A stretch of DNA of 64,000 nt from NCBI RefSeq assembly GCF_028369095.1, contig NZ_JAQNDN010000024.1, forward strand, positions 629,253-693,252. The letters run 5' to 3'. Below, in pieces: positions 1 through 39,845 of this stretch. Below the pieces are notes generated by a model. It did not search any database and was not told where the DNA came from. It saw nothing but the letters and a program-made list of their open reading frames with translations. The translations under genes were made by a program, and so were the position numbers. Position 1 is the stretch's first letter. The number at the start of each line of letters is the position of its first letter. The DNA is from Nannocystis radixulma. Its GTDB lineage: Bacteria; Myxococcota_A; Polyangia; Nannocystales; Nannocystaceae.

Positions 1-675
1 CTGGTGCGTTGCGCGTTCCTCGAGTGCGAGCTCTCCGGCGCGGATCTGCGGTCGTGCCGACTCGACTCGGTGACGCTGCTGGCGACCGATCTGCGGGCGA
101 CGCTGATCGAGGACGCGGAGTTCGAGCGCTGCACGCTGATCAAGGCCACGCTGGCCGGCATGCGCCTCGCCGGTATGCGCTTCCCGTTCACGCAATTCAC
201 CGACGCGGCGCTCGAGGGCTGCGACCTGAGCGGCGCCGATCTGCGCAACTGCAACTTCAAGGGCGCGAAGCTGGCGAAGCTCAAGGCGGGACGGGCGCGG
301 CTGACGAACGCGCTGTTCGTCGAGGCCGACCTGCGCGGCGCCGATCTGCAGGGAGCCGAGCTCACGCAGGCGATCTTCGTCGACGCCCAGCTCGAGCGGA
401 CCCAATGCGCCGGGGCGACGATGTATCAGTGCATCTTGCACCGGGCGAATTGCCGCGAGGCGACGTTCCGCGGGGCCGACCTGGTCTACGCCGACTTCTC
501 GCAGGCGATCGTCGCCGGCGCCGATTTCACCGGCGCGTCGATGTTCCGCGCCAACCTCCACGCCGTCGCGGACGAGGGGGCGAAGATCCCGAACCGCGCC
601 GTCACCCTCGGGACCGACCCCGAGCTGGCCGCCGCCCAGGGCTGGCGCCCGACCATGCCCCCTCCCAAGGAGTAG
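1..675 (+). CDS. pentapeptide-repeat protein (5'-partial, continues upstream of window)
   Basis: Open in frame from nt 1. Tandem pentapeptide A(D/N)LxxA(D/N)L pattern throughout (ADLRSCRLDSVTLLATDLRATLIEDAEF...GADLRNCNFKGAKL...). Stop TAG 673-675. GC3-rich codons. Confidence 0.8.
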   Translation: MVRCAFLECELSGADLRSCRLDSVTLLATDLRATLIEDAEFERCTLIKATLAGMRLAGMRFPFTQFTDAALEGCDLSGADLRNCNFKGAKLAKLKAGRARLTNALFVEADLRGADLQGAELTQAIFVDAQLERTQCAGATMYQCILHRANCREATFRGADLVYADFSQAIVAGADFTGASMFRANLHAVADEGAKIPNRAVTLGTDPELAAAQGWRPTMPPPKE

Positions 676-678
676 CGA

Positions 679-1335
679 ATGCAAGTCCACGATCTCCAGC
701 GTCTCCGTGTCCCCGCGACCGCGCCCGCGCATCAGGGCAGCGCGATCGTCCGCGAGCTGCGCGAGCAGTCGATTGTGCTGAGCGAGGAGCCGGGCGGCGA
801 GCCGTGGAGCGCACGACGGGCGGCCAGTTGCCTGCTCGCGCCGGAGCTTGGCGATCGCGTGTGGTTCGTGGTCGAGGCCGGCGTGCCGGGACAGCAGCGC
901 TGCTTCGTGACGGCGGTGCTCGAGCGCGAGAGCGACGCGGCGGCCCGCCTCGGCGTCGCGGGGGCGCCGGAGCTGCGGGTGGAGGCGGCCCGACTGACGC
1001 TCCGCGCCGACGCGCAGCTCGAGCTGCAGGCCGACGAGCTGCGCGCGCGCGGCCGGCTCGCGCGGGTGGTGCTCGACGAGTGCTCGTCGGTGCTGCGCAC
1101 GCTGTTCACCCACGCGAGCAAGGTGACGGTGGTCGGCAAGGTGGTCGAGACGCTCGCCGACCGGATCAGCCAGCACAGCAAGATCTCGCAGCGCACCGTC
1201 GAGCAGATCGATCAGGTCAAGGCCGGCACCATCGATTACCGCGCGACGTGCAGCGCCCAGATCGGGGCCGAGCACGCGCTCGTCACCGGCGCCGAGCTGG
1301 TCAAGATCGACGGCGGCCAGATCCACCTCGGCTAG
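679..1335 (+). CDS. DUF3540-like protein of a T6SS VgrG-associated accessory cassette
   Basis: ATG 679 with AAGGAG 7 nt upstream, 3-nt gap after the pentapeptide gene. Protein-like 218 aa. Gene order pentapeptide -> this -> DUF4150 PAAR-like matches known T6SS auxiliary modules; family assignment is from context, not from a recognised motif. Confidence 0.6.
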   Translation: MQVHDLQRLRVPATAPAHQGSAIVRELREQSIVLSEEPGGEPWSARRAASCLLAPELGDRVWFVVEAGVPGQQRCFVTAVLERESDAAARLGVAGAPELRVEAARLTLRADAQLELQADELRARGRLARVVLDECSSVLRTLFTHASKVTVVGKVVETLADRISQHSKISQRTVEQIDQVKAGTIDYRATCSAQIGAEHALVTGAELVKIDGGQIHLG

Positions 1336-1351
1336 AACGACAGGAGCCATC

Positions 1352-1747
1352 ATGTTCGCCAATACACAGATGATGGGCGTCGACACCGGCTTCCCCGATG
1401 TCTGCCTGACACCCTCGCCGGCCGGGCCGGTGCCGGTCCCGTACCCGAACATCACCGCCGGGCCGATGGGTGTACCCGCCGTCTACAACGTGCTGTTCAT
1501 GTGCGCCCCGGCGCACAACATGGCCACGACGATCCCGATGACTAATGGCGACAACGCGGGCCTCGCCACGGGCGTCGCCTCGGGTACGGTGATGGGCCCG
1601 TCGCGTCACTTGACCGGCGCCTTCACGTGCCTCGTCGGCGGCCTGCCGGTGACGCGCGTGACCAGCATGGCGCTGCAGAACTCGACCAACTGCCCGGGCG
1701 TGCGCGTGGTGCCGAGCCAGGTCAAGGTGCTGGTGCTGGCGCCCTGA
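1352..1747 (+). CDS. PAAR-like protein, DUF4150 family (T6SS spike-tip protein, no C-terminal toxin extension)
   Basis: Signature FPDVCLTPSPAGPVPVPYPNI near the N-terminus is the DUF4150 hallmark. 131 aa. 16 nt downstream of the previous gene. Confidence 0.85.
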   Translation: MFANTQMMGVDTGFPDVCLTPSPAGPVPVPYPNITAGPMGVPAVYNVLFMCAPAHNMATTIPMTNGDNAGLATGVASGTVMGPSRHLTGAFTCLVGGLPVTRVTSMALQNSTNCPGVRVVPSQVKVLVLAP

Positions 1748-1809
1748 ACTGCACGAAGCAGGACGCGTGCGCGGCCCGGAGCGCGGAGTTTGTGCGATAC
1801 TCGCCGGCG

Positions 1810-2277
1810 ATGACCGGCACGTCCACGAACCCCGGGCTCGCGCTCCTCTTCATCCCCGGGACGCTCTTCTGGGTCCTGGTGCTGGCGGGGATCTTCACCA
1901 AGAACACGTTCATGATCGGCGGGGCGGTGGTGCTGTTCGTCGTCACCGCCGTGGGCGCGATCACGATCAAGGCGCGCGCGAGCTCGGCCCGCAACGCCGA
2001 GCGCCTGCGCGTGTGGCAGGGCGGGACGCCGGGGCGCGCCCGCATCGTCACGATCGGCACGAAGGGCGGCGGCATCAATGGTCACCCCAACATCGACTTC
2101 GACCTCGAGGTGACGCTGCCGGGGCAGGAGCCCTATCGCGTGCAGGTCACCAGCCTGGTGTCGAAGCTGGCGATCCCGCGGGTCCAGCCCGACACCCAGA
2201 TCGACGTGCGCGTCGATCCGGCCAACAAGCTGAATGTCCTCATCGACGCCGCGCTGACGCCGTACGGCTACGAATGA
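1810..2277 (+). CDS. small membrane protein with 2 predicted TM helices, function unknown
   Basis: Track ORF 1627..2277; the first ATG (1810) sits in front of the hydrophobic stretch GLALLFIPGTLFWVLVLAGIF...GGAVVLFVVTAVGAI. Upstream in-frame part is low-complexity. Confidence 0.5.
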   Translation: MTGTSTNPGLALLFIPGTLFWVLVLAGIFTKNTFMIGGAVVLFVVTAVGAITIKARASSARNAERLRVWQGGTPGRARIVTIGTKGGGINGHPNIDFDLEVTLPGQEPYRVQVTSLVSKLAIPRVQPDTQIDVRVDPANKLNVLIDAALTPYGYE

Positions 2278-5200
2278 GCAATGCCGCGATCGTGACACTC
2301 TGAGCAGTCCTCGCCGAGCCAGGCGCGTGCGAGCTCGAGGGTGCCCGCATTCTCGGCGACCCGTTCGAGGAAGCGGCGGCGCGCGATGGGGTCGGTGATC
2401 TTCGCGGCGTTGGCGAGCAGGCGGTCACGCGCGGCGCGGATGACGTCGCGGGCCGCGTCGTGGTCCCCGGCGGCGTGGAGCGCTCGCGCGTGGACGAGGC
2501 GAGCGTGGGCGCCCTTGAGGCCGAAGCTGCCGAGCGACTCGAACTGCGCGACCGCGGCGCGGGCCGTCACCGCGGCCGCGGCCGCGCGACCCTGGGCGAG
2601 CTCGATGGCCGCCAGGATCGCCGTCGCCGACGCGCGCTCGATCGGGGCTGCCCGCAGCTGTTCGATGGCAGCCCGGACCTCGCGCGTCGCGTCGTCGAGC
2701 GCACCCAGGCGCAGGTGGACATCGGCGAGAGCGAGCCGTACCCGCCCCTGATCCATCGTGAGTCCGGGGCCCTGCCAGAACTCGACCATGCGAGCGGCCT
2801 CCTGCCGCGCCTCCTCCAGCGCGCCGCGGTTCGCCAGCACGCAGACGAAGAAGTAGTTCTGCATCGAGGTCGTGCTCCCGAGCTCCACCCCCTCGCGCAT
2901 GAGCTCACGGAGCTCGTGCTCGGCCTCGGCGAATGCGCCGAGCAGCAGGTAGTTCACGCCGACGAACAGCTGCGCGATCGCGGCGTGGCGGCGATGGCTC
3001 GCCTCGAGGAAGCTCCGCCGCGACGCCTGGGACCACTGTAGCCCCGCCCACGGGTCCTCGTTCGCCATGGCCTCGCGGTGTACGTGCGACAGCTCCATCA
3101 CGCCGCGGGCGAAGGGGTCGCGGCCGGCGACGGGCTCGACGATCGCGTGCACGCGCCGGAGACAGACCTCGGCGCGCTGGAACTGGCCGCCGATGTCGAG
3201 GATGAACATGCCCGTGGCGAGCGCCCAGGCGACCATCGCGGTCGCCTCGGGCGCCGGCGTCACGGCGCGCACGAGGTCGAGGGTGCGATCGAACTCGTCG
3301 AAGGCCTCGACCCGCACGCCCTCCCAGAGGAGCGCCCAGATCGCGCGGGCCCACGGCGCGGTGCCCGGCGCGGCCCACTGGACCGCCTCCCTCGCGTACG
3401 AGGCCGCGGTGTCGAGTTCGCTGCGCCATCCGTGCGCCTCGCACAGGACGATGAGCAGCGCGACTCGCCCGTCGTTCGGCACGTCGCACTTCAAGCCCTG
3501 GTGCGCGTAGGTCACCGCGGAGGTGGTGTCGTTGCCGCGCAGCGCGTGCTCGGCCGCGCCGATGTAGTAACTCCCGGCGCGCACTGGATCGCCGCCGCGC
3601 TCGAAGTGCTCCGCGAGCGCGATCGGGTTGTTCTCGCCGGACTCTGCGAGCCATGCTCCGGCGAGGCGGTGGCCGAGCGCGCGATCGGCCCCGGTGAGCA
3701 TCGCGTACGCGCCCTCGCGCAGCAGCGCGTGGCGGAACGCGAACTCCTGCTCCGCCGGGAATCGGCTGTCGGCGCGACGGACCAGCACTTCGGCCCGGAC
3801 CAGGTCGGCGATGTGCGCCGCTGCGTCCGCCGCCTGCGACACGCCGCCGAGCAGCGCAGCCACGCCGCCGAGCCAGAACACCTCGCCGAACACGCTCGCC
3901 GCCCGCAGGACCCGCCGCACGTCCGGATGCAGCCCGGTGAGGCGCGCCTGGACCATGGCGAGCACCGTCTGGGGCAGCGCCTCGCCGCGACGCTCGGCCA
4001 CCGCCCGGATCAGCTCCTCGAGGTAGAACGCGTTGCCCTCGGCCTGCACCACCAGACGCTCGACGGTCGCCGTGCTCACGGCGGCGCCGAGCACCTGGCG
4101 GATCAGCCGCTCGCTCGCCCGCTGGGGCAGCCCCTTGAGGCGCAGGTGCTGGACGTCGCGTCCTTCCCACAGCTTCGGGAACAGCGTGTGAACTTCGGGG
4201 CGTGCCAGCGCCAGCACCATGAGGGGCCGCTGGGCGAGGGATCGCAGCGCGGCGTCGATGAATTGCACGGTCGGCAGGTCGCCCCAGTGCAGGTCTTCGA
4301 GGACCAGCAGCACCGGATGCGCCGCGGTCTCCGCCAGCACGAATTCCTCCCAGGCGCGCCGCATCTGCTCGGACATCAGCTGCACGTCTTGCCGGGCGGC
4401 GCGCAGCGGGGCGCTCTCCTCGTCCGGAAGGCGGAGCTGGATGATCTCGCCGAGGAACTCGGTGACGCGGCGGCGCTCGCCGGCAGATACGGACCTGGCG
4501 ACGCGCTCGTGGAGCTTGTCCTGGCGGACCGCGAGCGGCTCGCCGTCACGCATGCGGCAGGCGTCGCGCAGCAGCTGACCGAGCAGGTCGAAGGCCGAAC
4601 CGGCGCGCAACGAGTCGCCGCGGCAGCACCAGATCTCGAGCGGCTCACCGCGCTCGCGCAGCGCCCGGACGACCTCGTGCGCGAGGCGGGACTTGCCGAG
4701 CCCCGCCGGCGCCGTGACCAGCACCGCGTGGGCGACCGAGTCGTCGACGCACTGGCTGAAGATGCCCTCGAGCGTGGCCAGCTCCCGCTCGCGACCCACG
4801 CACGAGGTCGCCTTGCCGAGCAGGGTCCGCGTCCCTTCGGCGAGCTCGGCCTCGGCCACGAGCTCGAGCCCGAGGGGGCCCTCGCGGACGTCGAACCTGG
4901 CGTCGAGCAGTCCGGCGGTGACATCGTCGAGCGCGATCGGCAGCGGAGCCTCGTACGGCCCCGGGCGTGCCGCGAGCATGCGCACGGCGCGATCGATCGC
5001 GTCGCCGACGGGCAGCGGGCCCGCGACCTCGCCCTGACCGGTGGCGATGGCCACGGGCCGCCCGGGCGACAGGGTCTGCATGGCGAGCGCGCAGCGGGCC
5101 GCGAGCACCGCCTGGTCGGTAGCGATCTGTCCGCCGACGATCGTCGTCACGATCGAGCCGTCGGCGAGCCGCTCGAAGTGGCCACCGCGGATAGCGACCG

Positions 5201-6176
5201 CGCCGCGCAGCTCCTCCGTGGTCGGCTCCGCGAGCTCGTCGCCGGGGAGCTGCGTGGTTGCGACGTCGATCCCGTGCTCGCCGCCCATCAGCACCACCGA
5301 GAGCACCTGCCGCTCGCCGTCCGTCAACGACATCGGGCGCTCGCGCGGGGGCTCGGGCAGCCCGCCCAGCGCCGAGAGTGCGGCCGCCACCTCGGCGCCG
5401 TCGCGCGGTCGCTCCTCCGGTCGCTTCGCCAGCATCTGCGCGAGCAGCTGCTCGAGGCTGCGCGGCACCTCGGGTCGGAGTTGCCGGAGCCGCGGCACCT
5501 CGGCGAACAGCACCTTCGCCAGCACCGCCATCAGATGATCGCCGGTGAACGCCGGCGAGCCGGCGAGACACTCGAACAATACGCAGCCGAGCGAGAATAC
5601 GTCGACCCGCGGTGTGACGTCCTGTTCGCCGCGCGCCTGCTCCGGGGCCATGTACCCCGGCGTCCCCAGGACCGCGCCTGCCTGCGTCAGATGCGTCCTG
5701 GCGTCGAAGCGGGCGATCCCGAAGTCGAGCACCTTGGCGCGCTCGACCTGTCGGCCGACCAGGAATAGGTTGCTCGGCTTGAGGTCGCGGTGGATCACGC
5801 CGCGAGCGTGGGCTGCTCCGAGCGCATCCGCGGTGCGTGCCCCGAGCGTGATACATTCGATGACCGATAAGGGCGAGCGTTCGAGCCGGTGGGCGAGGTC
5901 TTCGCCCTCGAGCCATTCCATCACCAGATACGGCTCTCCCGAGGGCACGAGCCCGCGCGCGACATAGCGAACGATCGCGGGGTGACGCAGCTCCGCCAGC
6001 ACCTCGGCTTCGCGCTCGAAGCGAGCGCGCTCGGCCCCGCGTCGCTGGGCGAGCATCTTCACCGCGACGGCATCACCGGTCGCGCGATCCGCCGCGCGGT
6101 AGACCTCGGCCATGCCTCCGGTGCCGGCGTGGTATTCGAGGATGAAGCGATCACCGACGACTTCACCTGGTTTCAT
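2268..6176 (-). CDS. Ser/Thr protein kinase fused to AAA-type NTPase and TPR-like C-terminal region
   Basis: Start taken at [11 protein letters not shown]. Hanks kinase motifs [30 protein letters not shown]; Walker [11 protein letters not shown]; long helical repeat C-terminus. Typical myxobacterial architecture. Confidence 0.85.
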
Positions 6177-6335
6177 CTCCGGGCATCTTACAAGCCGGCC
6201 GTGCGCACCGTCCACGCCTGACGGTGCCCTGGCCAATGAACCTCGTTATTCGCGCGCCGCGATCGATTCGCCGGACGGCTCGCTGGGGGCGTGCGTCCCC
6301 GGTGGAGCGGAATGCGGCCGGACGACTGGCACGCG

Positions 6336-8182: not shown

Positions 8183-8719
8183 TCATTCGCAGTCGCTCCA
8201 GACGAGGTGCGTGTGGCCCTCCGCCTCGCTCGACTCGATCTCGATCTGGCCGCCCGCGTCGATGATGGCGAAATCGGTCGGGGTTATCGTCAGCGTGTGC
8301 GTGTGATCGGCGGCGCCCGTGAACTCGTAGGTGCGCTCCACGCAGGCGTCGGCGTCGAAGGCGGGGATCACGAGCTCGTGCGGGGGCTCGTGGTTGTCCT
8401 TGATGATGATGTTGAGCGAGTCCTTGGCCGCACACCAGCCGCCGCCGCACGAGACCACGCCGGTGCTGGTGGTGCCGTGGTCGGTGGTGGCATTCGTGGT
8501 CGGCTCGGCGGTCGTACTCGCGCCTTCGCTCGTGGAGGTCGAGGTCGCGGGGTCGCCGGTCGAGGTGTCGCCCTCGGTGTCGGTGAGACCGGTCGAATTG
8601 GTGCCGGCGGTGCTGCCGGTCGAGGGGTCGGTGTCGCTGGCGGTGTCGCCGTTGCCGGGCTTGCAGGCGAGCAGGGCGGCCAGGGCGAGCGAGAGGCGTG
8701 CAGGTGTAATGTTAGGCAT
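8183..8719 (-). CDS. small lipoprotein (His-rich C-terminus), function unknown
   Basis: Internal ATG at 8719 gives MPNITPARLSLALAALLACKPG with a lipobox; T/S-rich linker; HTHTLT...EGHTHLV motifs. The upstream part of the track ORF is low-complexity. Confidence 0.55.
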   Translation of the reverse strand: MPNITPARLSLALAALLACKPGNGDTASDTDPSTGSTAGTNSTGLTDTEGDTSTGDPATSTSTSEGASTTAEPTTNATTDHGTTSTGVVSCGGGWCAAKDSLNIIIKDNHEPPHELVIPAFDADACVERTYEFTGAADHTHTLTITPTDFAIIDAGGQIEIESSEAEGHTHLVWSDCE

Positions 8720-8876
8720 GCGGACGAGCGTAGCGCGTCGCCGTGGCAGGCGGGAGCCGCTCGCTGCATCGCGCGACCGCTCGGGAGTGATGGGGGTGTT
8801 CGTGCTCGCGTGAACATTTCGGCCGCGGGACCACTGCGGACCGAACGGTCCGGTGAGCGAGAGCGCGGGCGCGCGC

Positions 8877-9869
8877 TCAGAAGTGATAGTCGAGCTGGTA
8901 CGGCACGCAGGCGAGGTTCTGCGGGGTGTCGACGCGGATCCAGATCTTGGCGCTGTCGTCGAGTCCGTCGCAGTTGAGCTTGGGGGCCACACTGCTGGCG
9001 CTGCAGCAGCCTTTCTGGCCCAGCGGGGCGATGTCGTCGGTGGCGCTGCCGCAATTGATGCTGGTGCCGCCGCTGTTGCACTGCAGGTAGACGCAGACCC
9101 GCCCGCCGCCGCCGTTCTGGGTGACGAGGCTGCGCACGGGGTCGACGTAGTTGAGGAAAGCGTCGTCGCCGGCGAAGGTGAACCAGTCGACGTCGTTGGC
9201 GCCCTTGATCGTGCCGCAGGCGAACGAGCCGTCGCCGTCGTTGTCGCTGATCGTGCCGAGGTTGAGGGCGGTCTCCTGATTGTCGTGCGGCTCGGCGCCG
9301 TAATCCTCGCAGGCGTCGGTGACCTGCTTGCACGGGCGGCAGGCGGCGTCGGTGTGGCAGAACTGGCTCAGGCCGGGACCGCAGGCGGTGTGCATCGGCC
9401 TGGGGGTGTTGAGCGGCGTGGCGCCCTCGCAGGTGTCGTCGGTGCAATCGTTGGTGTCGTCGGGGACGTCGGAGGCGTCGAGCATGGTGACGATGTCGCC
9501 GCCGTCGCACACGTAGCGCTGGCAGTCGCCGGGCACCTGCGGCGGCGGATCGTCGGCCAGCTCGCTCTGCAGGCCGCCCTTGCCGTCGCACACGTCCTGT
9601 CGACAATCACCATGGGTGCCGGGCCAGACTGTCCCCGCGGGCAGGTCGGCGACGCCGCAGGCGCCGTCGGTGCAGGTGATCTGCCGGCAGGGGCCGGGGA
9701 TCGGGCAATTGTTGGGACACTGATCGGCGCCGGTGGTCGGAATGTCGTCGGTGGTGCCGCCGCTGGTGCTGCCGGTCGAGGTCGTGGGATCGGTGGGATC
9801 GTCGTGGAACAGACAGGCGCCCGCGAGCGCCGTGGTGAAGATGCTGATCGCCGCCGTCGTGCCTCGCAT
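8877..9869 (-). CDS. Cys-rich secreted lipoprotein
   Basis: MRGTTAAISIFTTALAGAC signal with lipobox; more than 30 Cys in CxxC/CxDGxC-like patterns; T/S linker. Confidence 0.6.
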   Translation of the reverse strand: MRGTTAAISIFTTALAGACLFHDDPTDPTTSTGSTSGGTTDDIPTTGADQCPNNCPIPGPCRQITCTDGACGVADLPAGTVWPGTHGDCRQDVCDGKGGLQSELADDPPPQVPGDCQRYVCDGGDIVTMLDASDVPDDTNDCTDDTCEGATPLNTPRPMHTACGPGLSQFCHTDAACRPCKQVTDACEDYGAEPHDNQETALNLGTISDNDGDGSFACGTIKGANDVDWFTFAGDDAFLNYVDPVRSLVTQNGGGGRVCVYLQCNSGGTSINCGSATDDIAPLGQKGCCSASSVAPKLNCDGLDDSAKIWIRVDTPQNLACVPYQLDYHF

Positions 9870-30179: not shown

Positions 30180-33100
30180 TCAGCGGGTCTTGACCTCGAA
30201 GCCGAGGCCGCGCCGGGCCGCGACGTAGGCCGGGCTGACGGCGAACACCAGCAGGTCGCGGAGGTCGCCGTCGTGGGCGGCGCGGGCCTTGAGGGCGGCG
30301 CTGCGTTCACCTGGCTCTTGGGGCAGGCCGAGGATGTCGAGGGCGGCGCCGAGGTTGCGCGACAGGCACAGGCCGACGCGATCGCCGGAGCGCTGGACCC
30401 ACGCGCGCCAGTCGCGGCTGTCGAAGCCCTCCTGCTCGCGCTCCTTGAATTGGGTGCTGAGCTGGCGCGCGAGCCGGATCGGCAGCTTGCGCGCGAGGGT
30501 CTGGCCGAGCCGCGCGGCCAGGTCGGCCTCGTCGCGGCCCCGCACGCGCCGGGTGTGGCGCGGATGGAAGGCCTGCAGCGCGGCCGCGAGGACGCCGGCG
30601 AAGATCGGCCTCGGCAGGCCGGCGACCAGGATCGCGGCCGGACGGGTGAAGAACAGCGCGCGGCCGAGGGCGAAGCGCAGGCGCGGGGCGGTGGTCTCGG
30701 CGCGCGCCGCGGGGCCGACGAGGATCACCGGCGAATGCACGGCGGAGACGTTGACCCAGCCGCCGTCGACCTTGCCGTCGGGGATCAGCGCGATGTCGGC
30801 GAGGCGCACGCCCTGGGCCGGGAGCTGGGTCCCGAGCTCGGTCCAGACCTTCCACAGCAGGGTGTCCTTGTCGGTCTCGGCCTCGATCCAGGCGGCCTCG
30901 CTGAACTGCGGGCGCGGCAGCTCCTCCGCCAGCAGCTCGGCGGCGCCCTCCCACAGGGCGGTCATGGCCGGGACGACGCCGGCGTCGGCCGGGGCCGCGT
31001 CGAGCACGGTCGCCGGATCGAGCTTGCCGCTGCGCACCGACACCAGCTCGTTGCTCGACAGGAAGGCGCCGGCCTCGGCGTGGCCGGGGCTGACGATCCG
31101 CAGCAGCTGGTGGATCGCGTGGGCGCGGTCGCGCTCGCCGGTCTCGGCGCAGTGGCGGGCGAGGGCGGCCAGGCTGGCCTCGTCGAGCGGGTCGAGGTGC
31201 AGCAGGGCGTCGGAGTTGCTGCGCACCTGCGGGCCCTGGATCTTGGCGTCGGCGTAGAGCCGGGCCAGCTGGCGCCGCGGGACCAGCCCGAGGCCGGCCG
31301 GGTCGAGCTCGGCGGCCCGCTCGAGCAGGCGTATGGCCTGGGCGGGGCGGCTGTCCGCAGGGTCAGCCGGCGGGTCGGCCTGGAGGACCAGGTCGGACAG
31401 CCAGACCAGGAGGCGCTGGCGATCGCGGGCCTCGCGGAGGTCGCCAGGCGGCTGCTGCAGGGCCTCGCGGCCGAGGAAGGCGCGCACGGCCGGCTCGATC
31501 TCGTCGTCCTTCCCGGCGGCGCGTAGCGCGTCCACGAGGGCATGGATCGGGCCGGCGGCGTCGGGCAGCAGCAGGGCGGCGGCGCGGGCGTAGCCGAGGG
31601 CGCGCGCGGGGTCGCCGGGTTCGCCGCGCTGGAGGGCGATCCGCACGCCCTCGAGCAGGAAGGCGGCGCGCTTGGCCTCGCGCAGGTCGGGGTGGTGGAG
31701 CAGGCGGTCGAGGCAGCCGAGGGCGATGGCGGCGTTGCGCGGGACGGCGGTCCAGAAGGCGGCCTCGAGCTGGCGGCGCTCGACGACCGGGTGCGGGATG
31801 TCCTGGATCAGCGCCAGGCCGGCCTGCACGGCCTCGAAGGCGGCCGCGAGGATCTTCTGCGCCGAGCTGCTGGCCACCGTCTCCTCGCCGGCCTCGGCGG
31901 CGGCGCCGGCCGCCTCGTGGAACAGCATGCCGGCGCCGAGCAGGGCCCGGCCGCGCGCCTCGGGGTCGGATTCGAGTTCGGCGAGGGCGAGGGTGTGCTC
32001 GGCCGCATCGACCAGTCTGCCCGACTCTTGGGCCAGCTGAGCCAGGGCGGCGCGAGCCTTGCGGTGGCGCGGGGCCAGCTCGAGCGCGCGGGCGTAGCGG
32101 GCGGCGAGCCGCTCGGCGGGGGCGTTCTGCTTGGCGTCGCACTCGGCGGCGAGGATCAGCAGGTCGGCGACCACGGGGGCGCGCTCGGCCGGGATCGGCG
32201 TGCCGGCGGCCAGGCGCTGCTCGACGGGCTCGAGCGCGGCGACGGCGTCGCGGTGGCGGCCGGCGGCGGCGCGGTTGTGGGCCATGGCGGCGCGGATCTC
32301 GAGGTCGTCGGGGACGTGGCGCAGGGCCATCGACAGCCGGCGGTAGGCCTCGTTGGCGCGATCTGTCCGTTCGAACAGGTGCGCGAGCAGCAGGAGGCCC
32401 TCGACCAGGCGCGGCTGATCGCGGGTGAGGCCGAACGCCTCGACCGCGGCCTCGAGCGCGGCCTCGGCCTCGGCGTGCAGGCCGGCCTCGATCAGCGCGG
32501 AGCCGAGGGCCAGGCGCGCGGGCGCGTGGTCGGGGTCGACGGCGAGGGCGGCCTCGAAGCGGCGGCGGGCGCGGGCGAATTCCTGGCCGCCGCGCAGCAG
32601 GGCGCGGCCGCTCTCGGTGAGGATCCGGGCGCGGATCTCGGGGTCGTCGATCTGGGCCAGCTGGGCGTCGAGCAGGGCGTCGGCGCCGTCGAGGTCGCCG
32701 GCGGCCAGGCGCAGGCCGACCAGACCCTCGATCGCCTGCGACAGCCGGCGGCTGCGCTGCGGGGCGCCGGGGGCCAGCTCGGCCAGCACGCGGGTGAACA
32801 GCTGGGCGGCCAGCTCGGGCTCGCGCAGGCGGTCGCGGGCGATCGCGGCGGCCTCGAGGATGCCGTCGGGCTCGCCGACGGCGGCGAGGCTGACGGCGAG
32901 CACGCGGTCGTCGCCGAGGGCGCGGGCGAGGGCGACGCGGCGCTGCTGCAGGCCGAGGGCGGCCTCCGGCGGGGCGGCGGCGAGCGCCTCGTCGAGGGTC
33001 TCGAGCGCGCCGCGCGGGTCGCCTGCCTCTTCGGCCAGGGCGGTCGCCAGCGCCTCGGCGACGCGCAAGCGGCGGGCCGCCAGCGCCGGCGAGACCGGCT

Positions 33101-36100
33101 CGGGGATGTCGAACGGCAGCGGCTCGTCCTCGACCGGCTCGAGGCGCACCTCCATGTCGCTCATGATCTCGGCCAGGCGGCGGCGCAGCATCTCGATGCC
33201 GTCGTCGAGCCGGCCGCCCTTGCGGTAGAGGCGGGACAGGCCGAGCACGACGTCGTCGTTCTCGGGGGCCTCGGCGGCGAGGGTCTCGAGGGTCTCGAGC
33301 GCGGCGATCTCGTCGCCCTGGCCCTCTTGCAGGGCGCGGGCTTTGACGACGAGCAGGGCGATCCGGGCGTCGCGGTCGCCGGGGGCGACCTGGGCCAGGC
33401 GGCGGTCGAGGACCGGCAGCAGCTTGGCGTACTGCTCGCTGCGCAGGTAGAGGTTCTGCAGGCGGGCCAGCGCGTCGGGGTCGCCGGGGTTGTGGACCAG
33501 CACTTCGGACCAGGTGGCGATCGCGGCGTCGATCTGGCCGAGGCGCTCCTCGGTGAGGAGGGCGGCGCGGGCCAGGCAGCGCACGCGCGCGTCGGGGTTG
33601 GGCACGACCTCGGCGGCCCAGCGCAGGGCCTCGACCGCGCGGACCCACAGGCCCTCGCGCTGGAGGATCTCGATCAGCTCGGCGTGGACGTCGGCGGTCT
33701 CGGGGGTCTCCTTGACCAGCGCGTCGAGGCGGCGGATGGCCTCGAGCGAGCGGTCGGCGCGGTAGGCGAGGTCGCGCGCGAGCTGGAGGACGCGGGGGAT
33801 CCGCTCCTCGAGCGTGAGGCAGTCGGCCTCGGCGTCGTAGAGGCGCGCCGACGCCTCGGCGGCCTCGCGCTCGCGGCCGGTCTTGGCGTGCAGCGCGGCC
33901 AGGCTGCGCAGCGCCGGCAGGTGCTTCGCCGACACCGCGAGCACGCCGCGGTACTGCTCCTCGGCGCGCTCGGGCTGACCTGTCTGTTCGTACAGGTCGG
34001 CGAGGCGCAGGTGATAGGCGACGATGTGCTCGGGCAAAGTGAGGTCGCCGAGCAGGCGCGAGAGCGCGGCGATCAGGCGCTCGGGGTCACCTGCCTTTTC
34101 GGACAGGTCGACGAGGCCGGCGAGCGCGGTCTGGTCGTCGGGCACGAGCGCGAGGGCCTCCTCGAGGCGCTCGATCGCGGCCTCGGGCATGCCGGCGCCC
34201 TCGTCCCACAGGCGGGCGAGCAGGCGCTGGAGGCCGGCCCGCTCGGACTTGCTGGCGGGGACCACCGAGGCGTAGGCGTGGGCCAGCTCGTGCCAGGCGG
34301 AGCTGGCCGAGGGGCGGGCCGGCAGGACCGGGGCGTCGAGCTCGGGCAGCGGCGGCAGGCCGGCGGTGACGGCGTCGATCAGCTCGCGGCTGGCGACCGG
34401 AGGCGGCGGCGGCAAGCTGGCCGCAGGGACAGGTTCGGGCGCGGCCGGCGGGCGCGAGGGCGGCGGCGGGGCGGCCGGGCGGCGCGTCGGCGGCGGGGCC
34501 TTGGCGACCGGCTTGCCGCCGGGCGGGCGCGGCGGGGCCGTCTTGAGCGGCTTGGCGGCCGGGCGCGGCAGCGACGGCTTGGCCGAGGTGGGCCGCGGGA
34601 CGTCGTCGTCGAGCTCGAGCATCTCGTCGAGGTCGAGCACGCCCGAGGTCTCGCCGCCCGGGCGCTTGGGCGCCGGGCCGACCAGGCTGTCCTCGATCGG
34701 CTCGAGGTCGGCGAGGTCGAACACGCCGCTGTCCTGGCGCGCCAATCCGGCCGCGCGCACGCTGACCGAGACGGAGGCCTCGACCGGCTCGAGCTCGGCG
34801 ATGTCGACGATGTCGGTCTCGCCGCGGGCCGGTCGCGAGGGCCGGATCTTGGTGGTGGTGGCCACCGAGGCCTCGATCGGCTCGAGCTCGGCGATGTCGA
34901 CGATGTTGGTGTGCGTGTCGGAGGCGACGCCCTTGCCCGGGCGGGCGACGACCTCGGCGCCGCCGCGGCGGAAATCGCCGAGCGGCTCGAGCTCGGACAG
35001 GAGGATCTCGGTGGTCGGGCGCGAGACCTCCTCGATGTCGTCGAGCTCGACGACGCTCGACTCTTCCTTGCTCCGCACCTTCTTGGCGACGCGCGGGGCG
35101 AGGGTGTCGGGGTCGAGGCCGAGCTTGCGCCACTGGTCGCGGTCGGCCAGCTCGGGCGGGGCGATCTGCGGCCACAGCAGCGGGTCGCGCGCCGGCTGCG
35201 GGGTGAGGTAGGTGCCGGTCAGGCCGGCGAGGTGCCACATCTTGGCGTGGGTCGGGCCGAGCTCGCCCTTCTCCGGCGGCAGGTCGCCGTGCAACTTCCA
35301 CGCGGCGATCCGGGCCCGCAGGGCGTACTCGGGCCGGCCGAGGCAGTTCTCGTAGAGCTCGGCGATCTGGGTCAGGAGCTTGCCCTGCTGGGCCTTGCCT
35401 GTCCCGAAGTGCAGCTCGGCGGCGGGCGCGAGCAGGAGGAGGTGCCACAGGTTGTCGCGCTCGGCCAGGCGGTCGAGCTCGAAGCGGGCCTCCTCGCTGC
35501 CGGGGTGGAGCGAGAGGGCGCGCAGCCACTCGGCGATGGCACCGGCGGTGTCGCCGAGGCCGGCGCGCAGCTCGGCGCGCCGTTTGAGCAGTTGCAGCTT
35601 GAGCGCGGGGTCGACGGTCTGGCCGATGATCTGCTGGGTGACGGACAGCAGGGTCAGGGCGCCGGTCGGCGGGGTGTCGGGGCTGCGGTTCTCGTCGACC
35701 TTGGCGGCCATCGCCTCGATCGCGGGCATCAACGCGGCGCCGTCGCGGTCGTAGGCGACGCCGAGTCGGAGCGTGCGCAGGGCGGCCAGCGGATCCTGGC
35801 GCTTCTCGTAGTCGATGCGGGCCGAGTCCTTGAGCTGATTGAGGCCGCCGCGCTCGCTCCGCTGCAGCTTGGCGAGCGCGAGGCCGCGGTGGTGATCGGC
35901 GAGCTCGGGCCACAATTGATGGCGCTGGGCCAGCTCGGTCATCAGGCCGGCGGCCTCCTCGGCGAGCGACGGATCGGCGGGCCGCAGGTCGTTCTCGGCC
36001 CGGCGCAACCACTGGAAGGCGCGCCTGGGATCGTCGAGGTGGCGCTCGTAGATCTTGGCGATCGCGGTGCAGGGGTCGAAGCGGCCGAGGCCGGTCTTGG

Positions 36101-39100
36101 CGCGGGCGAGCCGGGCCTCCTGCAGGTCGATCAGCGCCTGCCACATCTTGTGCGCCTCGGCGAGGGCCTCGATCTGGCGCCCGAGATCCTCGTCGTCGGG
36201 GCGCAGCTTGTAGGCGCGCTGCAGGTAGCCGATCGAGCGCGCGGGGTCGCCGAGGCGCTCGCGGGCGATCTCGGCGGCGGACATCAGGAGGGCGATGGTG
36301 CCGAAGTCGCCGTAGTTGGGGGTCTTCTCCTGGAAGGCGAGCTCCTGCTCGCTGACCTCGAGCATCTGCGGCCACAGGCCGTGGGCCTGGGCCAGGCCCT
36401 CGAGGCGGTCGAGCACGGGGCCGGCGTCGAGGCCGGCGCGCAGGGCCACGAAGTAGGCCTTGCGCGCCCACGCGAACGCGAGGTCGGCGTCGCCGATCTT
36501 CTTCTCGGCGGTGGCCGAGGCGCCGAGGCAGAGGTCGATCTGGCCGCGGCTCTCGGCCCGGCCGCTCATCTCGGTGAAGCGCTCGCCGTAGACGACGAGC
36601 AGGTCCTTGTACATGCCGTGGCGCTCGGCGAACCCTTCGATCTTGGTCTTGAGGTCGCGGCTGCCGGGGGCGATGCCGAGAGCCCGCCCGAGCAGCGCGA
36701 GCGCCCGCTTGGCGTGGCCGAGCCCGTACTCGCACACCTCCGCCATCTGCTCGAGAGTGACGACCTGCTGGGCGGCGTCGGTGAGGCTCTCGAGCCGCTT
36801 GGCGAGGGTGTCGAGGGTGGCCTGGTGGTCCCCGGCCATGGTCTGCAGCTCGCCGAGGACCTTGAGGCCCTCGCTGTCGTCGGGCTCCTCGCGCATGAAC
36901 CGCTGGAACGCGGCGATGGCCTTCTGCGGCTGGTTGAGGTTGACGACGTAGTTGCGGGCGATCAGCGAGAACAGCTCGCGCCGCTCGTCGGTCTCGAGCG
37001 CGGACAGCAGCAGCACCTCGGCCTGGCGGATCAGGCGGTCGTACTGGCCGGCGCGCTCGTACAGCTCGAGCAGCTTGAGGGCGACGTCGCGGTGGCCGAC
37101 GGCGGAGGTCGAGGCGAGCTGCTCGAGCACGCGGATGGCGGCCGCCGGGTTGTCGAGGCGGTCGGCCAGGATCTCGGCGCGCTCCCAGCCGATGCCGAGC
37201 GCCTCCTCGTCGCTGTCGGCCATCTCCTGCAGGGTGCCGAGCGAGGCGGCGAGGCCGTGCCAGCTGCCGAGGTTGCGGTAGAGGCGGGTCAGCGCCTCGG
37301 TGGCGCCGCGGTGGTCGCGGTGGATCCGCAGCGCGCGCTCGAAGGCCGAGCAGGCCAGGTCGGCGTCGCCGAGCGAGGCCTCGGCGACGTGGCCCAGGCG
37401 CATGAGGTAGTCGAGCTGGCGGATCGCGGGGGTGCGCGCCGAGCTGGCGGCCTTGCCGAGCAGGTTGGCCAGCTCCTCGCGGTTGCCGAGCGCCTCGTAG
37501 GCGGCGATCAGCTTGTCGGTGACCTCGAGGTTGTGCGGATCGGCGGCCTGCAGCTGCGTCCACGCCTGGGCCGAGCGCTGCGGATCTTGCAGCTTGCGGT
37601 CGGCGACGTCGGCCATGCGCCGGATGATGCGGGTGCGCTGGGCCGGTTCGCCGACCAGCTGCAGCTCGCGCGAGAGGGCCTCGTACTCGCCGCCGGCGTC
37701 GCCGAGCTCGGACGACAGGCCCTGCATGCGGTGGACGGCGTCGAGGTCGGACGGGCTGTAGCCGAGGATCTGCTCGCAGGCCCACAGCGCCTCGCGCGGG
37801 CTGTGCAGCTCGTGCTGCCACAGCTCGGCCATGCGCCGCAGCAGGACCACCCGCTGCGAGATGCTGCGGGTGACGTCGTGCTGGCGCCGCAGCAGGTCGA
37901 TGACCTGGTCGTAGGCACCTGTCCGTTCGTACATCTCCGCGAGCGCCCGCAGGGCACCCTCGTGGCCGGGCGCCAGCGCCAGCATCTCCTGCAGCAGGAC
38001 GATGGTGCGCTGCGGGTCGGTCATGCGCTCGCGGTGGGCCTGCGACAGCCGGCGCAGCACCTCGAAGCGGCGCTGCGGATCGACGGTGCGCTGCAGCTCG
38101 GACTCGAGGGTGGCGAGGTTGGCGTCGAGCATGCGCGCGCGCTTGTCGATGCGGGCGATCTGGTCGCGCGGGCGCCAGTCGTTGGGGTAGGCCAGCGCGA
38201 GCCGGTTCCACGCGTCGAGGGCGCCGGCGAGGTCGCCGAGGCGGCGCTCGTAGATCTCGGCCAGCTCGACGAAGTGCTCGGCGAACTCGCTGCGCGCGAG
38301 CGGGCTGTCAGGGCCGCCGCCCATCTGCAGCGCCTGGTCGACCTGGTAGAGGATGAGGCCGGCGAGGTGCGACCAGTTGTTCTTGCGCCGCCAGTGCTCC
38401 TTGTAGCCCTCGAACGCCTCGTGGTTGAAGGGCTCGCGCTCGAGCACGCGGTAGAAGGCGACGGCGGCCCGCTCCTCGTCGCCGAGGTCCTCGCGGGCGA
38501 CGCGGGCGGCCCACAACAGCTTGTCGGTCGGCAAGCTGCTCGGGTCCTGCTCCGACCAGCGCTCGTACAGGCCGACGAGGGCGTGGTTGTCGCCGAGCTC
38601 GACGAGCAGGGCCTCGAGCCGCAGCCAGGCGTCGCCGCCGGGTCGCTCGAGCCGCGAGGCCTGCTCGTAGCAGGCGCGCGCCTCCTCGCGGCGGGCGAGG
38701 CGGGTCTCGAGCAGCTCGCCGCGCGACAGCCACAGGCCGTAGCTGTCGGCCTCGGTGACGTAGCCGATCCAGGCGCCGTAGAGGTCGTCGAGCTCCATCC
38801 ACTTCTCCTGCGCCATCAACAGCTCGGCCAGCGCGTTGCCGGCCTCGTGGTGATCGGGGCGCAGGCTCATGGCCCGACGCAGGAGGTTGTAGGCGATCTT
38901 GTCGTCGCCCTGGCTGCGCGCGAGCTTGGCTGCCCGAAAGAACACGTCGGCGGCCTTCTGCAGGCCCTCGTCGCTGGCCTTGCCGCTGCCGAGGTAGAGG
39001 GCGCCGAACGCCCGCAAGGCGGCCACGTCGTCAGGGTTGGCCTTGAGCGCGGCTTGCAGGTGGAGCGCGGCCGAGGGGATGTTCTCGAGCTGCTCGGCCT

Positions 39101-39845
39101 CGATCCGCGCGAGCCGCAGGTGCAGCGCGGCGAACCGCTCGCGCTCGCGGACAGTGTCGGTGCGCGCGAGCTCGGCGTTGATCAGATCGATGACCCGCAG
39201 CCAGGCGCCGGCCTGAAGGTGCAGCCGGATCAGCTGCTCGGCGGCGTCGCGCTCGCCATGGTTGATGTCGAGCGCGGCCCTGTAGCAAGCGATCGCCTCG
39301 TCGACCTGACAGCGCTGCTCGTCGACCTTGCCGAGCTCGACCAGGGCGGCCGGCACAGCCCCACGATCGTTCCGACGCAAGTGATCGAGGCGGAACTTGA
39401 GGAGGGTGGCGAGCTCGTCCAGCGCGCCGATCTCCTGGTAGACCTTGCGCAGCAGCTCGAAGGCGCGATGATTGTGCGGCTCGGCCTGCAGCGCCCGCAC
39501 GAGGGCGTAGGCGGCCTGCGGCTTGTCCTTGACCCGGTCGTACCAGAGCTCGTACGCCTGCACGCACAGCTCGCCGACCTTCGGCGGACCAGTGATCGCA
39601 GCGGCGTGCACGACGAGCAAGGTGGCGAGCCCGCTCCAGTTCTCGGCCTCGCGGAAGGCCCGGCGCAGACGCAAGAATGCGTCGTCGCTCGGCTTGGCTC
39701 GAAACGCGGCCAGCTCCGGCGGCTCTCCAGGAGCCACAGGCGGCAACGGGCAAGGCAGATCGTGAGGCGAGGGCTGGCGCTTGGGCGCGACGGCAGTTTC
39801 AGGCATGGGGCGTGGTGCCGCGAGCGGGGCCGCCCAAGGTACCAC
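30180..39845 (-). CDS. giant TPR-repeat protein (3,221 aa) with internal Pro-rich linker
   Basis: Continuous 9.7-kb ORF with helical TPR-like repeats throughout. Central PPRPPGGKPVAKAPPPTRRPAAPPPPSRPP linker is preceded by a three-fold IVDIAELEP(I/V)EASV repeat. The antisense 2,803-aa ORF is compositional junk. Confidence 0.8.
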   Translation of the reverse strand: MVPWAAPLAAPRPMPETAVAPKRQPSPHDLPCPLPPVAPGEPPELAAFRAKPSDDAFLRLRRAFREAENWSGLATLLVVHAAAITGPPKVGELCVQAYELWYDRVKDKPQAAYALVRALQAEPHNHRAFELLRKVYQEIGALDELATLLKFRLDHLRRNDRGAVPAALVELGKVDEQRCQVDEAIACYRAALDINHGERDAAEQLIRLHLQAGAWLRVIDLINAELARTDTVRERERFAALHLRLARIEAEQLENIPSAALHLQAALKANPDDVAALRAFGALYLGSGKASDEGLQKAADVFFRAAKLARSQGDDKIAYNLLRRAMSLRPDHHEAGNALAELLMAQEKWMELDDLYGAWIGYVTEADSYGLWLSRGELLETRLARREEARACYEQASRLERPGGDAWLRLEALLVELGDNHALVGLYERWSEQDPSSLPTDKLLWAARVAREDLGDEERAAVAFYRVLEREPFNHEAFEGYKEHWRRKNNWSHLAGLILYQVDQALQMGGGPDSPLARSEFAEHFVELAEIYERRLGDLAGALDAWNRLALAYPNDWRPRDQIARIDKRARMLDANLATLESELQRTVDPQRRFEVLRRLSQAHRERMTDPQRTIVLLQEMLALAPGHEGALRALAEMYERTGAYDQVIDLLRRQHDVTRSISQRVVLLRRMAELWQHELHSPREALWACEQILGYSPSDLDAVHRMQGLSSELGDAGGEYEALSRELQLVGEPAQRTRIIRRMADVADRKLQDPQRSAQAWTQLQAADPHNLEVTDKLIAAYEALGNREELANLLGKAASSARTPAIRQLDYLMRLGHVAEASLGDADLACSAFERALRIHRDHRGATEALTRLYRNLGSWHGLAASLGTLQEMADSDEEALGIGWERAEILADRLDNPAAAIRVLEQLASTSAVGHRDVALKLLELYERAGQYDRLIRQAEVLLLSALETDERRELFSLIARNYVVNLNQPQKAIAAFQRFMREEPDDSEGLKVLGELQTMAGDHQATLDTLAKRLESLTDAAQQVVTLEQMAEVCEYGLGHAKRALALLGRALGIAPGSRDLKTKIEGFAERHGMYKDLLVVYGERFTEMSGRAESRGQIDLCLGASATAEKKIGDADLAFAWARKAYFVALRAGLDAGPVLDRLEGLAQAHGLWPQMLEVSEQELAFQEKTPNYGDFGTIALLMSAAEIARERLGDPARSIGYLQRAYKLRPDDEDLGRQIEALAEAHKMWQALIDLQEARLARAKTGLGRFDPCTAIAKIYERHLDDPRRAFQWLRRAENDLRPADPSLAEEAAGLMTELAQRHQLWPELADHHRGLALAKLQRSERGGLNQLKDSARIDYEKRQDPLAALRTLRLGVAYDRDGAALMPAIEAMAAKVDENRSPDTPPTGALTLLSVTQQIIGQTVDPALKLQLLKRRAELRAGLGDTAGAIAEWLRALSLHPGSEEARFELDRLAERDNLWHLLLLAPAAELHFGTGKAQQGKLLTQIAELYENCLGRPEYALRARIAAWKLHGDLPPEKGELGPTHAKMWHLAGLTGTYLTPQPARDPLLWPQIAPPELADRDQWRKLGLDPDTLAPRVAKKVRSKEESSVVELDDIEEVSRPTTEILLSELEPLGDFRRGGAEVVARPGKGVASDTHTNIVDIAELEPIEASVATTTKIRPSRPARGETDIVDIAELEPVEASVSVSVRAAGLARQDSGVFDLADLEPIEDSLVGPAPKRPGGETSGVLDLDEMLELDDDVPRPTSAKPSLPRPAAKPLKTAPPRPPGGKPVAKAPPPTRRPAAPPPPSRPPAAPEPVPAASLPPPPPVASRELIDAVTAGLPPLPELDAPVLPARPSASSAWHELAHAYASVVPASKSERAGLQRLLARLWDEGAGMPEAAIERLEEALALVPDDQTALAGLVDLSEKAGDPERLIAALSRLLGDLTLPEHIVAYHLRLADLYEQTGQPERAEEQYRGVLAVSAKHLPALRSLAALHAKTGREREAAEASARLYDAEADCLTLEERIPRVLQLARDLAYRADRSLEAIRRLDALVKETPETADVHAELIEILQREGLWVRAVEALRWAAEVVPNPDARVRCLARAALLTEERLGQIDAAIATWSEVLVHNPGDPDALARLQNLYLRSEQYAKLLPVLDRRLAQVAPGDRDARIALLVVKARALQEGQGDEIAALETLETLAAEAPENDDVVLGLSRLYRKGGRLDDGIEMLRRRLAEIMSDMEVRLEPVEDEPLPFDIPEPVSPALAARRLRVAEALATALAEEAGDPRGALETLDEALAAAPPEAALGLQQRRVALARALGDDRVLAVSLAAVGEPDGILEAAAIARDRLREPELAAQLFTRVLAELAPGAPQRSRRLSQAIEGLVGLRLAAGDLDGADALLDAQLAQIDDPEIRARILTESGRALLRGGQEFARARRRFEAALAVDPDHAPARLALGSALIEAGLHAEAEAALEAAVEAFGLTRDQPRLVEGLLLLAHLFERTDRANEAYRRLSMALRHVPDDLEIRAAMAHNRAAAGRHRDAVAALEPVEQRLAAGTPIPAERAPVVADLLILAAECDAKQNAPAERLAARYARALELAPRHRKARAALAQLAQESGRLVDAAEHTLALAELESDPEARGRALLGAGMLFHEAAGAAAEAGEETVASSSAQKILAAAFEAVQAGLALIQDIPHPVVERRQLEAAFWTAVPRNAAIALGCLDRLLHHPDLREAKRAAFLLEGVRIALQRGEPGDPARALGYARAAALLLPDAAGPIHALVDALRAAGKDDEIEPAVRAFLGREALQQPPGDLREARDRQRLLVWLSDLVLQADPPADPADSRPAQAIRLLERAAELDPAGLGLVPRRQLARLYADAKIQGPQVRSNSDALLHLDPLDEASLAALARHCAETGERDRAHAIHQLLRIVSPGHAEAGAFLSSNELVSVRSGKLDPATVLDAAPADAGVVPAMTALWEGAAELLAEELPRPQFSEAAWIEAETDKDTLLWKVWTELGTQLPAQGVRLADIALIPDGKVDGGWVNVSAVHSPVILVGPAARAETTAPRLRFALGRALFFTRPAAILVAGLPRPIFAGVLAAALQAFHPRHTRRVRGRDEADLAARLGQTLARKLPIRLARQLSTQFKEREQEGFDSRDWRAWVQRSGDRVGLCLSRNLGAALDILGLPQEPGERSAALKARAAHDGDLRDLLVFAVSPAYVAARRGLGFEVKTR

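Follow-up and report, generated by a model that had tools for sequence, protein, structure and literature searches.

A probable Class III Tvp spike-assembly cassette in Nannocystis radixulma and its DUF3592-like membrane protein, a tentative immunity candidate

The first 2.3 kb of a stretch of Nannocystis radixulma DNA (all 64,000 nt that were analysed are called the window below) encode a type VI secretion system (T6SS) spike-tip protein without a toxin domain, followed by a small membrane protein. The question raised by this locus is what kind of spike cassette it represents and which role, if any, the membrane protein has in it. We conclude that window 1-2277 is very probably the 3' end of an orphan vgrG island with a Class III Tvp spike-assembly module. 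The cassette itself has already been described, and the locus adds a myxobacterial case to a system whose description dates from 2025-2026. The new element is modest: DUF3592-like membrane proteins recur in Class III cassettes and switch between positions there. The family member at this locus, a protein of 155 amino acids (aa), is tentatively proposed as an immunity protein.

Gene content of the locus

Four genes were located on the plus strand and were followed by a convergent kinase gene, as the initial annotation of the sequence had described.

1..675, plus strand: tvpB, 3' part (last 224 codons and stop), frame open at the 5' end of the window; Pfam Pentapeptide, E=2.3e-34
679..1335, plus strand: tvpC, DUF3540, 218 aa; PF12059, E=5.7e-41, 141 bits against a cutoff of 27.9
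1352..1747, plus strand: paar, DUF4150/PIPY PAAR-like spike tip, 131 aa; PF13665 (Tox-PAAR-like, formerly DUF4150), E=3.3e-37
1810..2277, plus strand: two-transmembrane (two-TM) protein with a C-terminal DUF3592-like beta domain, 155 aa
2268..6236, minus strand: Ser/Thr kinase with AAA_16, 1322 aa; convergent, with a 10-nt overlap with the two-TM gene

The order pentapeptide, DUF3540, DUF4150 and two-TM protein was thus borne out, the last protein being 155 aa long instead of the 156 given before. The DUF3540 and DUF4150 models matched strongly, and the domain E-values are far beyond chance. The DUF3540 protein covers positions 16-199 of the 199 in the PF12059 profile, and the protein encoded by 1..675 also matched Pentapeptide_4 and Pentapeptide_3 in Pfam. 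The gaps between the four plus-strand genes are 3, 16 and 62 nt. Nothing was found in a promoter and terminator scan of window 1-2600, which included no terminator-like site. The DUF3540, DUF4150 and 155-aa proteins correspond to the consecutive N. radixulma NCBI entries MDC0674498 to MDC0674500, the first of which NCBI lists as a DUF3540 protein. An N. radixulma protein with 100% identity was also found for the kinase.

The signature on which the DUF4150 assignment had been based, FPDVCLTPSPAGPVPVPYPNI, occupies residues 14-34 of the 131-aa PAAR-like protein. Residues 28-31, PVPY, fit the P(I/V)P(Y/F) motif by which 'PIPY' domains are defined (PMC11883445). The earlier statement that this protein carries no C-terminal effector also held: PF13665 covers residues 10-116 of 131, which leaves no room for a toxin domain.

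Class III Tvp modules consist of TvpAB, TvpB, TvpC (DUF3540) and a small Paar1, and their distribution includes Myxococcota (Monlezun, Earl & Coulthurst, EMBO J 2026, PMC13373197). The same synteny is DUF2169 'synteny type C' of Sachar et al. (JBC 2025, PMC11883445), and in Burkholderia T6SS-5 the genes are named tagAB, tagB, tagC (DUF3540) and tagD (DUF4150) (PMC13584744). The N. radixulma locus shares with Class III a DUF3540 TvpC, a stand-alone pentapeptide TvpB directly upstream of tvpC and a small, toxin-less PIPY PAAR. Since Class III PAARs normally have no toxin domain, the toxin-less PAAR needs no special explanation.

Upstream genes in related genomes

The orthologous loci of Nannocystis sp. 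SCPEA4 (L001), N. pusilla (L002) and one metagenomic relative were aligned with the window at 97% DNA identity. Window 1-2277 was 97.2% identical to L001 8650-10918, and the alignment began at window base 1. Window 1..675 corresponds to L001 8650-9324 (97% DNA identity), the 3' part of a 369-aa gene at 8215-9324. In L001 and L002 the order is VgrG (742 aa), DUF2169+pentapeptide protein (907 aa), pentapeptide protein (369 aa), DUF3540 protein (218 aa), PAAR (131 aa) and the 155-aa protein. VgrG has 742-752 aa in L001, L002 and L007 and is cut by the contig end in L013; the DUF2169+pentapeptide protein has 907-909 aa in all four. The Nannocystis VgrG extends about 170 aa past the Gp5 trimer domain. 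The module of vgrG and DUF2169 genes that had been proposed to adjoin the locus was therefore found directly upstream, with the pentapeptide gene, in all three relatives. Because these align at 97% from the first base, vgrG and the DUF2169-pentapeptide fusion gene (tvpAB) are expected upstream of the window in N. radixulma as well.

TvpC and the assembly pathway

An AlphaFold2 (AF2) monomer model of TvpC showed an OB-like barrel at residues ~15-90 with pLDDT>90. The C-terminal half was poorly modelled, as would be expected for the monomer of a trimeric prism. In Foldseek, TvpC matched OB folds, and AFP and R2-pyocin spike proteins (6rbk_C, 4s37_M) appeared at non-significant E-values of 0.04-0.07. 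BLASTP detected no sequence similarity between TvpC and the Nannocystis VgrG, and NCBIfam and PADLOC gave no match for TvpC, PAAR or the two-TM protein. The role of TvpC as a partial VgrG mimic that templates the PAAR cap is suggested by the Serratia TvpC, an OB-fold plus beta-prism mimic of VgrG (PMC13373197). In Serratia, the pre-complex forms first and TvpC is then exchanged for the long VgrG1 (PMC13373197).

All functional steps of spike assembly proposed for Nannocystis follow Serratia marcescens by analogy. TvpC, as a trimeric OB-fold and beta-prism mimic of the VgrG tip, would bind the small DUF4150 PAAR. TvpAB, expected to be encoded just upstream of the window, and TvpB would wrap and shield the TvpC-PAAR tip as a pre-complex. 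TvpC would then be swapped for the cognate long VgrG to give a secretion-competent VgrG-PAAR spike. The 155-aa protein would be an inner-membrane member of the module that protects the cell from the activity borne by the spike and corresponds in function to Serratia Vai1.

Comparison with known spike cassettes

The cassette of Serratia marcescens Db10 (VgrG1, Vai1, SMDB11_2246, TvpAB, TvpB, TvpC, Paar1) has the same families in the same order as that of Nannocystis. Both include a toxin-less DUF4150 PAAR and a beta-rich protein that is small and anchored in the membrane. The toxic, membrane-depolarising activity seen in Serratia requires VgrG1 and is carried with the VgrG-PAAR spike itself, and no separate effector has been identified; vai1 directly follows vgrG1 and encodes an immunity protein of the DUF3192 family, with one TM helix and a beta-rich domain predicted to be periplasmic (PMC13373197). 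The Nannocystis membrane protein, in contrast, has two TM helices, is encoded after paar and is DUF3592-like, with a domain that is predicted to be cytoplasmic. Nannocystis further belongs to a different phylum and has no counterpart of SMDB11_2246, and its cassette is an orphan island whereas that of Serratia lies inside the main T6SS cluster.

Burkholderia T6SS-5 tagAB/tagB/tagC/tagD comprise the same four families in synteny type C. There, however, the genes lie inside the core cluster of a eukaryote-targeting system, and no DUF3592-like gene has been reported. Class II of Pseudomonas aeruginosa (PA0095 VgrG1b, PA0096 DUF6484, PA0097 DUF2169, PA0098, PA0099 Tse7) and Class I of Agrobacterium (VgrG2, Tap2/DUF2169, Tde2) resemble Nannocystis in having a DUF2169 chaperone and a DUF4150 PAAR domain adjoining vgrG, and Class II also has a small OB-fold VgrG mimic. 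Unlike in Nannocystis, the PAAR of both classes carries a fused nuclease toxin, an immunity gene lies beside it, and pentapeptide proteins and DUF3540 are lacking.

Position of DUF3592-like genes in Class III cassettes

A genome scan with an alignment of PAAR proteins yielded 80 loci. Most were from Myxococcota (Enhygromyxa, Plesiocystis, Paraliomyxa, Sorangium, Polyangium, Byssovorax, Minicystis and Hyalangium) and the others from Desulfobacterota, Thermodesulfovibrionia, Bacteriovoracaceae and Beta/Gammaproteobacteria. When the Nannocystis proteins were mapped onto the loci, VgrG-TvpAB-TvpB-TvpC-PAAR was found in nearly all 80. The 131-aa PAAR protein was 75-92% identical across these loci and one metagenome locus, nearly all with Class III cassette genes. 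In L018, L019, L023 and L037 (Enhygromyxa and related) the order is rotated to TvpC-PAAR-VgrG-(slot protein)-TvpAB-TvpB.

In many cassettes a family hidden Markov model (HMM), searched over the 80 loci, detected a small homologue of the 155-aa protein, with one TM helix and a beta domain, exactly between vgrG and tvpAB. Counts were made on the 60 cassettes in which the vgrG-tvpAB junction was resolved.

Homologue in the slot between vgrG and tvpAB: 21 of 60
Homologue directly following paar (three Nannocystis-type lineages and L082): 5 of 60
Homologue in both positions: 0 of 60
vgrG abutting tvpAB, no homologue: 32 of 60
Other inserts at the vgrG-tvpAB junction: 7 of 60

All 20 junction gaps of 375-590 bp were filled by the DUF3592-like family; the 21st slot case (L047) is a weak match in a 1344-bp gap. 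The slot-positive taxa were Nannocystaceae, Thermodesulfovibrionia, Smithella, Desulfomonilia, Bacteriovoracaceae, Aquabacterium, Caldimonas and one gammaproteobacterial metagenome-assembled genome (MAG). Slot-positive cassettes encode VgrG proteins 35-51% identical to that of Nannocystis, and slot-negative ones mostly 24-34%. Reciprocally, an HMM built solely from 19 slot proteins hit the 155-aa protein at E=9.8e-19, its sole match in the window, and hhalign aligned the slot family with residues 64-150 of that protein, the beta domain, at 99.6% probability.

Extra copies of DUF3592-like genes were found in two loci: three in tandem at L081 5325-6846, in a cassette seemingly without TvpAB, and one on each side of vgrG in L017 (1537-1965 and 4395-4838). 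These copies resemble immunity-gene arrays.

Other DNA of 2.4-3.7 kb lies between vgrG and tvpAB in Sorangium and Polyangium loci (L034, L036, L086, L095 and others), which often also encode a protein of ~550 aa with an N-terminal hydrophobic segment after paar. These inserts and ~550-aa proteins may represent cargo genes.

On the Enterobacter cloacae plasmid pIMI-6 (L097) a Class III cassette adjoins tssH. A 131-aa one-TM protein is encoded after vgrG (4368-4763), with a truncated 71-aa open reading frame (ORF) beside it (4908-5123). The 131-aa protein, the closest available enterobacterial stand-in for Serratia Vai1, had no match in Pfam or to the family HMMs, and the truncated ORF matched the slot-protein HMM weakly (E=0.002). 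From these proteins we take it that the slot holds small membrane proteins in Enterobacterales too.

Structure and family of the 155-aa protein

Hydrophobic helices were located at about residues 10-28 and 35-53 of the 155-aa protein, followed by the beta domain. In the AF2 model (pLDDT 83) a basic helix prolongs the second of two TM helices, and residues 73-145 form a beta domain of five strands. The protein had no match in Pfam or NCBIfam. UniRef names it 'DUF58 domain-containing protein' and NCBI hypothetical; a search for DUF58 gave no match even at a relaxed cut-off of E<=10, and the UniRef name seems to be erroneous.

There are 22 close homologues. Those at about 54% and 72% identity (L007, L013 and L100, in three metagenomic lineages) directly follow paar, and the genes downstream of the 155-aa homologues differ: GH71 in Nannocystis, HTH_8 in L007 and GAF/STAS in L013. 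Since the gene is kept after paar while its downstream neighbours differ, it travels with the cassette. At or below 50% identity, homologues occur in unrelated contexts. An exhaustive profile search gave 3537 cluster representatives of the beta-domain superfamily, many with tandem copies of the domain.

With the Pfam DUF3592 model (PF12158, cutoff 25.3 bits), distant tandem-domain relatives scored 29-33 bits and slot proteins 15-26 bits; one slot protein reached 26.4 bits and homologue P0021 15.7 bits, and the 155-aa protein itself had no match. The relation of the 155-aa protein to DUF3592, as judged from these profile matches, is at the superfamily level only. Like the 155-aa protein, DUF3592 proteins combine one or more TM helices with a small barrel. 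We know of no function for the DUF3592 family. In Streptococcus suis a DUF3592 TM protein is found in LXG-toxin loci of the type VII secretion system, a second toxin-delivery context for the family (PMC12482557).

Role of the 155-aa protein

The initial annotation had suggested that the membrane protein might be an effector or an immunity component. Our results support the second possibility, by way of the vai1 slot in 21 other loci, and make the first unlikely. We tentatively favour the view that the 155-aa protein is a candidate immunity protein against a spike-borne activity, that is, an analogue of Vai1 outside the Vai1 sequence family. We favour it because its homologues occupy the position of Serratia vai1 in those 21 loci and because it has the same build as Vai1, a membrane anchor with a small beta domain. 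It is also the fastest-diverging protein of the cassette (54% identity, against 86-89% for PAAR and 66-68% for TvpC), and duplicates and orphan copies occur, a pattern known from immunity genes; for both reasons immunity is preferred.

Several observations weigh against this assignment, or against an active cassette. Membership of the Vai1 family was rejected: DUF3192 did not match the 155-aa protein or its homologues (E<=10), or ten slot proteins (E<=1). The 155-aa gene does not immediately follow vgrG as vai1 does, but follows paar. The structure search returned no match to any protein of known function. Judged by the positive-inside rule (4-6 K/R after the second TM helix, 0-1 in the loop), the beta domain probably faces the cytoplasm, opposite to the predicted periplasmic side in Vai1. 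About half of the Class III cassettes (32/60) have no DUF3592-like gene, and the superfamily is found mostly outside T6SS loci. A tblastn search with Pantoea TssJ/K/L/M/TagF detected none of them in the window or beside the myxobacterial cassettes, and core genes beside only one betaproteobacterial cassette; for this reason the locus is regarded as an orphan vgrG island. Nannocystales carry T6SS genes, a general statement that is our sole ground for a working T6SS in N. radixulma, and such genes are reported to be degenerate or absent in some myxobacteria (PMC10196010).

It is possible, though the idea is held more loosely still than immunity at this locus, that DUF3592-like proteins form a second, widespread immunity family for Class III spikes, without sequence relationship to Vai1 and found in the vai1 slot or after paar in roughly 40% of cassettes and in four phyla or more. 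In that case many lineages would use the toxin-less Class III spike itself as their weapon, and the DUF3592-like superfamily, whose members are mostly orphans, would gain its first function. The work in Serratia left open the toxic principle of Class III spikes and the resistance to it. The recurrent DUF3592-like family offers an independent, testable handle on both, as candidate immunity genes paired with specific VgrG subclades.

An unlikely alternative, although the best of the others, is that the 155-aa protein is a producer-side accessory: a membrane-tethered protein whose cytoplasmic OB-like domain acts at the docking site of baseplate and membrane complex, for instance by assisting the unusually long Class III spike, or the TvpAB/TvpB cap, in engagement or release. 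T6SS assembly takes place on the cytoplasmic side of the membrane, to which the predicted topology assigns the beta domain. The gene also lies among assembly-factor genes in one operon and is associated with a single VgrG subclade, as the VgrG identities given above indicate, and a long beta-prism poses a fit problem at the membrane complex (PMC13373197). However, half of the Class III cassettes lack the gene, among them those of Serratia and Burkholderia as these have been described. A structural accessory would not usually occur in tandem or as orphan copies remote from any T6SS gene, and the 155-aa protein diverges much faster than the Tvp proteins.

That the gene is an unrelated neighbour without a T6SS role is improbable. 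The very large superfamily, found mostly outside T6SS loci, and the unrelated contexts of the more distant homologues are consistent with such a passenger, as is the gene's own 62-nt spacer. But chance adjacency is insufficient to account for a family at one of two exact, mutually exclusive positions in 26/60 cassettes, which span Myxococcota, Desulfobacterota, Thermodesulfovibrionia, Bacteriovoracaceae and Beta/Gammaproteobacteria and come from MAGs as well as isolates. The 155-aa gene moreover moves with the cassette while both flanks change.

We consider it more improbable again that the cassette as a whole is a non-functional remnant in a genome whose T6SS is absent or degenerate. Such a reading would fit the lack of core genes within 64 kb and beside the myxobacterial cassettes, and the state of T6SS genes in some myxobacteria (PMC10196010). 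Against it, every reading frame is uninterrupted and there is little space between the genes. Three Nannocystis species-level genomes share a PAAR protein with 100% identity while their DNA has diverged by 3%, a sign of purifying selection. It is also common for orphan vgrG islands to depend on a distant T6SS core cluster.

The possibility that the 155-aa protein acts as the cargo effector, being a small toxin that inserts into membranes and rides on the VgrG-PAAR spike, is very remote: the protein is small and hydrophobic, and the Serratia Class III activity targets the membrane with its effector unidentified (PMC13373197), but no immunity candidate adjoins the gene and the cassette ends against a convergent gene, no Eag/DUF4123-type chaperone for the TM helices is present, free-standing copies occur in genomes without adjacent T6SS genes, tandem arrays are typical of immunity genes and not of toxins, and the Serratia protein encoded in the corresponding position was shown to confer immunity (PMC13373197).

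Kinase segment and other features of the window

The convergent kinase gene is the sole gene on a 4,056-bp segment (2278-6333) that N. sp. SCPEA4, N. pusilla and the metagenomic contig lack. In these relatives only 3 nt separate the 155-aa gene from a convergent GH71 gene. A visual check of the junction sequences of the segment showed no repeats. The kinase has AAA_16 and TPR-like regions and belongs to a very large group of myxobacterial STK-AAA_16-TPR kinases. Because the segment is absent from relatives, the kinase is not considered part of the cassette; a role as a T6SS regulator of the TagE/PpkA type was rejected on account of this indel and of the huge STK-AAA-TPR family in myxobacteria.

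Farther into the window, a 2803-aa plus-strand ORF without a Pfam match overlaps 30180..39845 (minus strand), a 3221-aa ORF that consists largely of TPR repeats (TPR_19 E=3e-34 and others).

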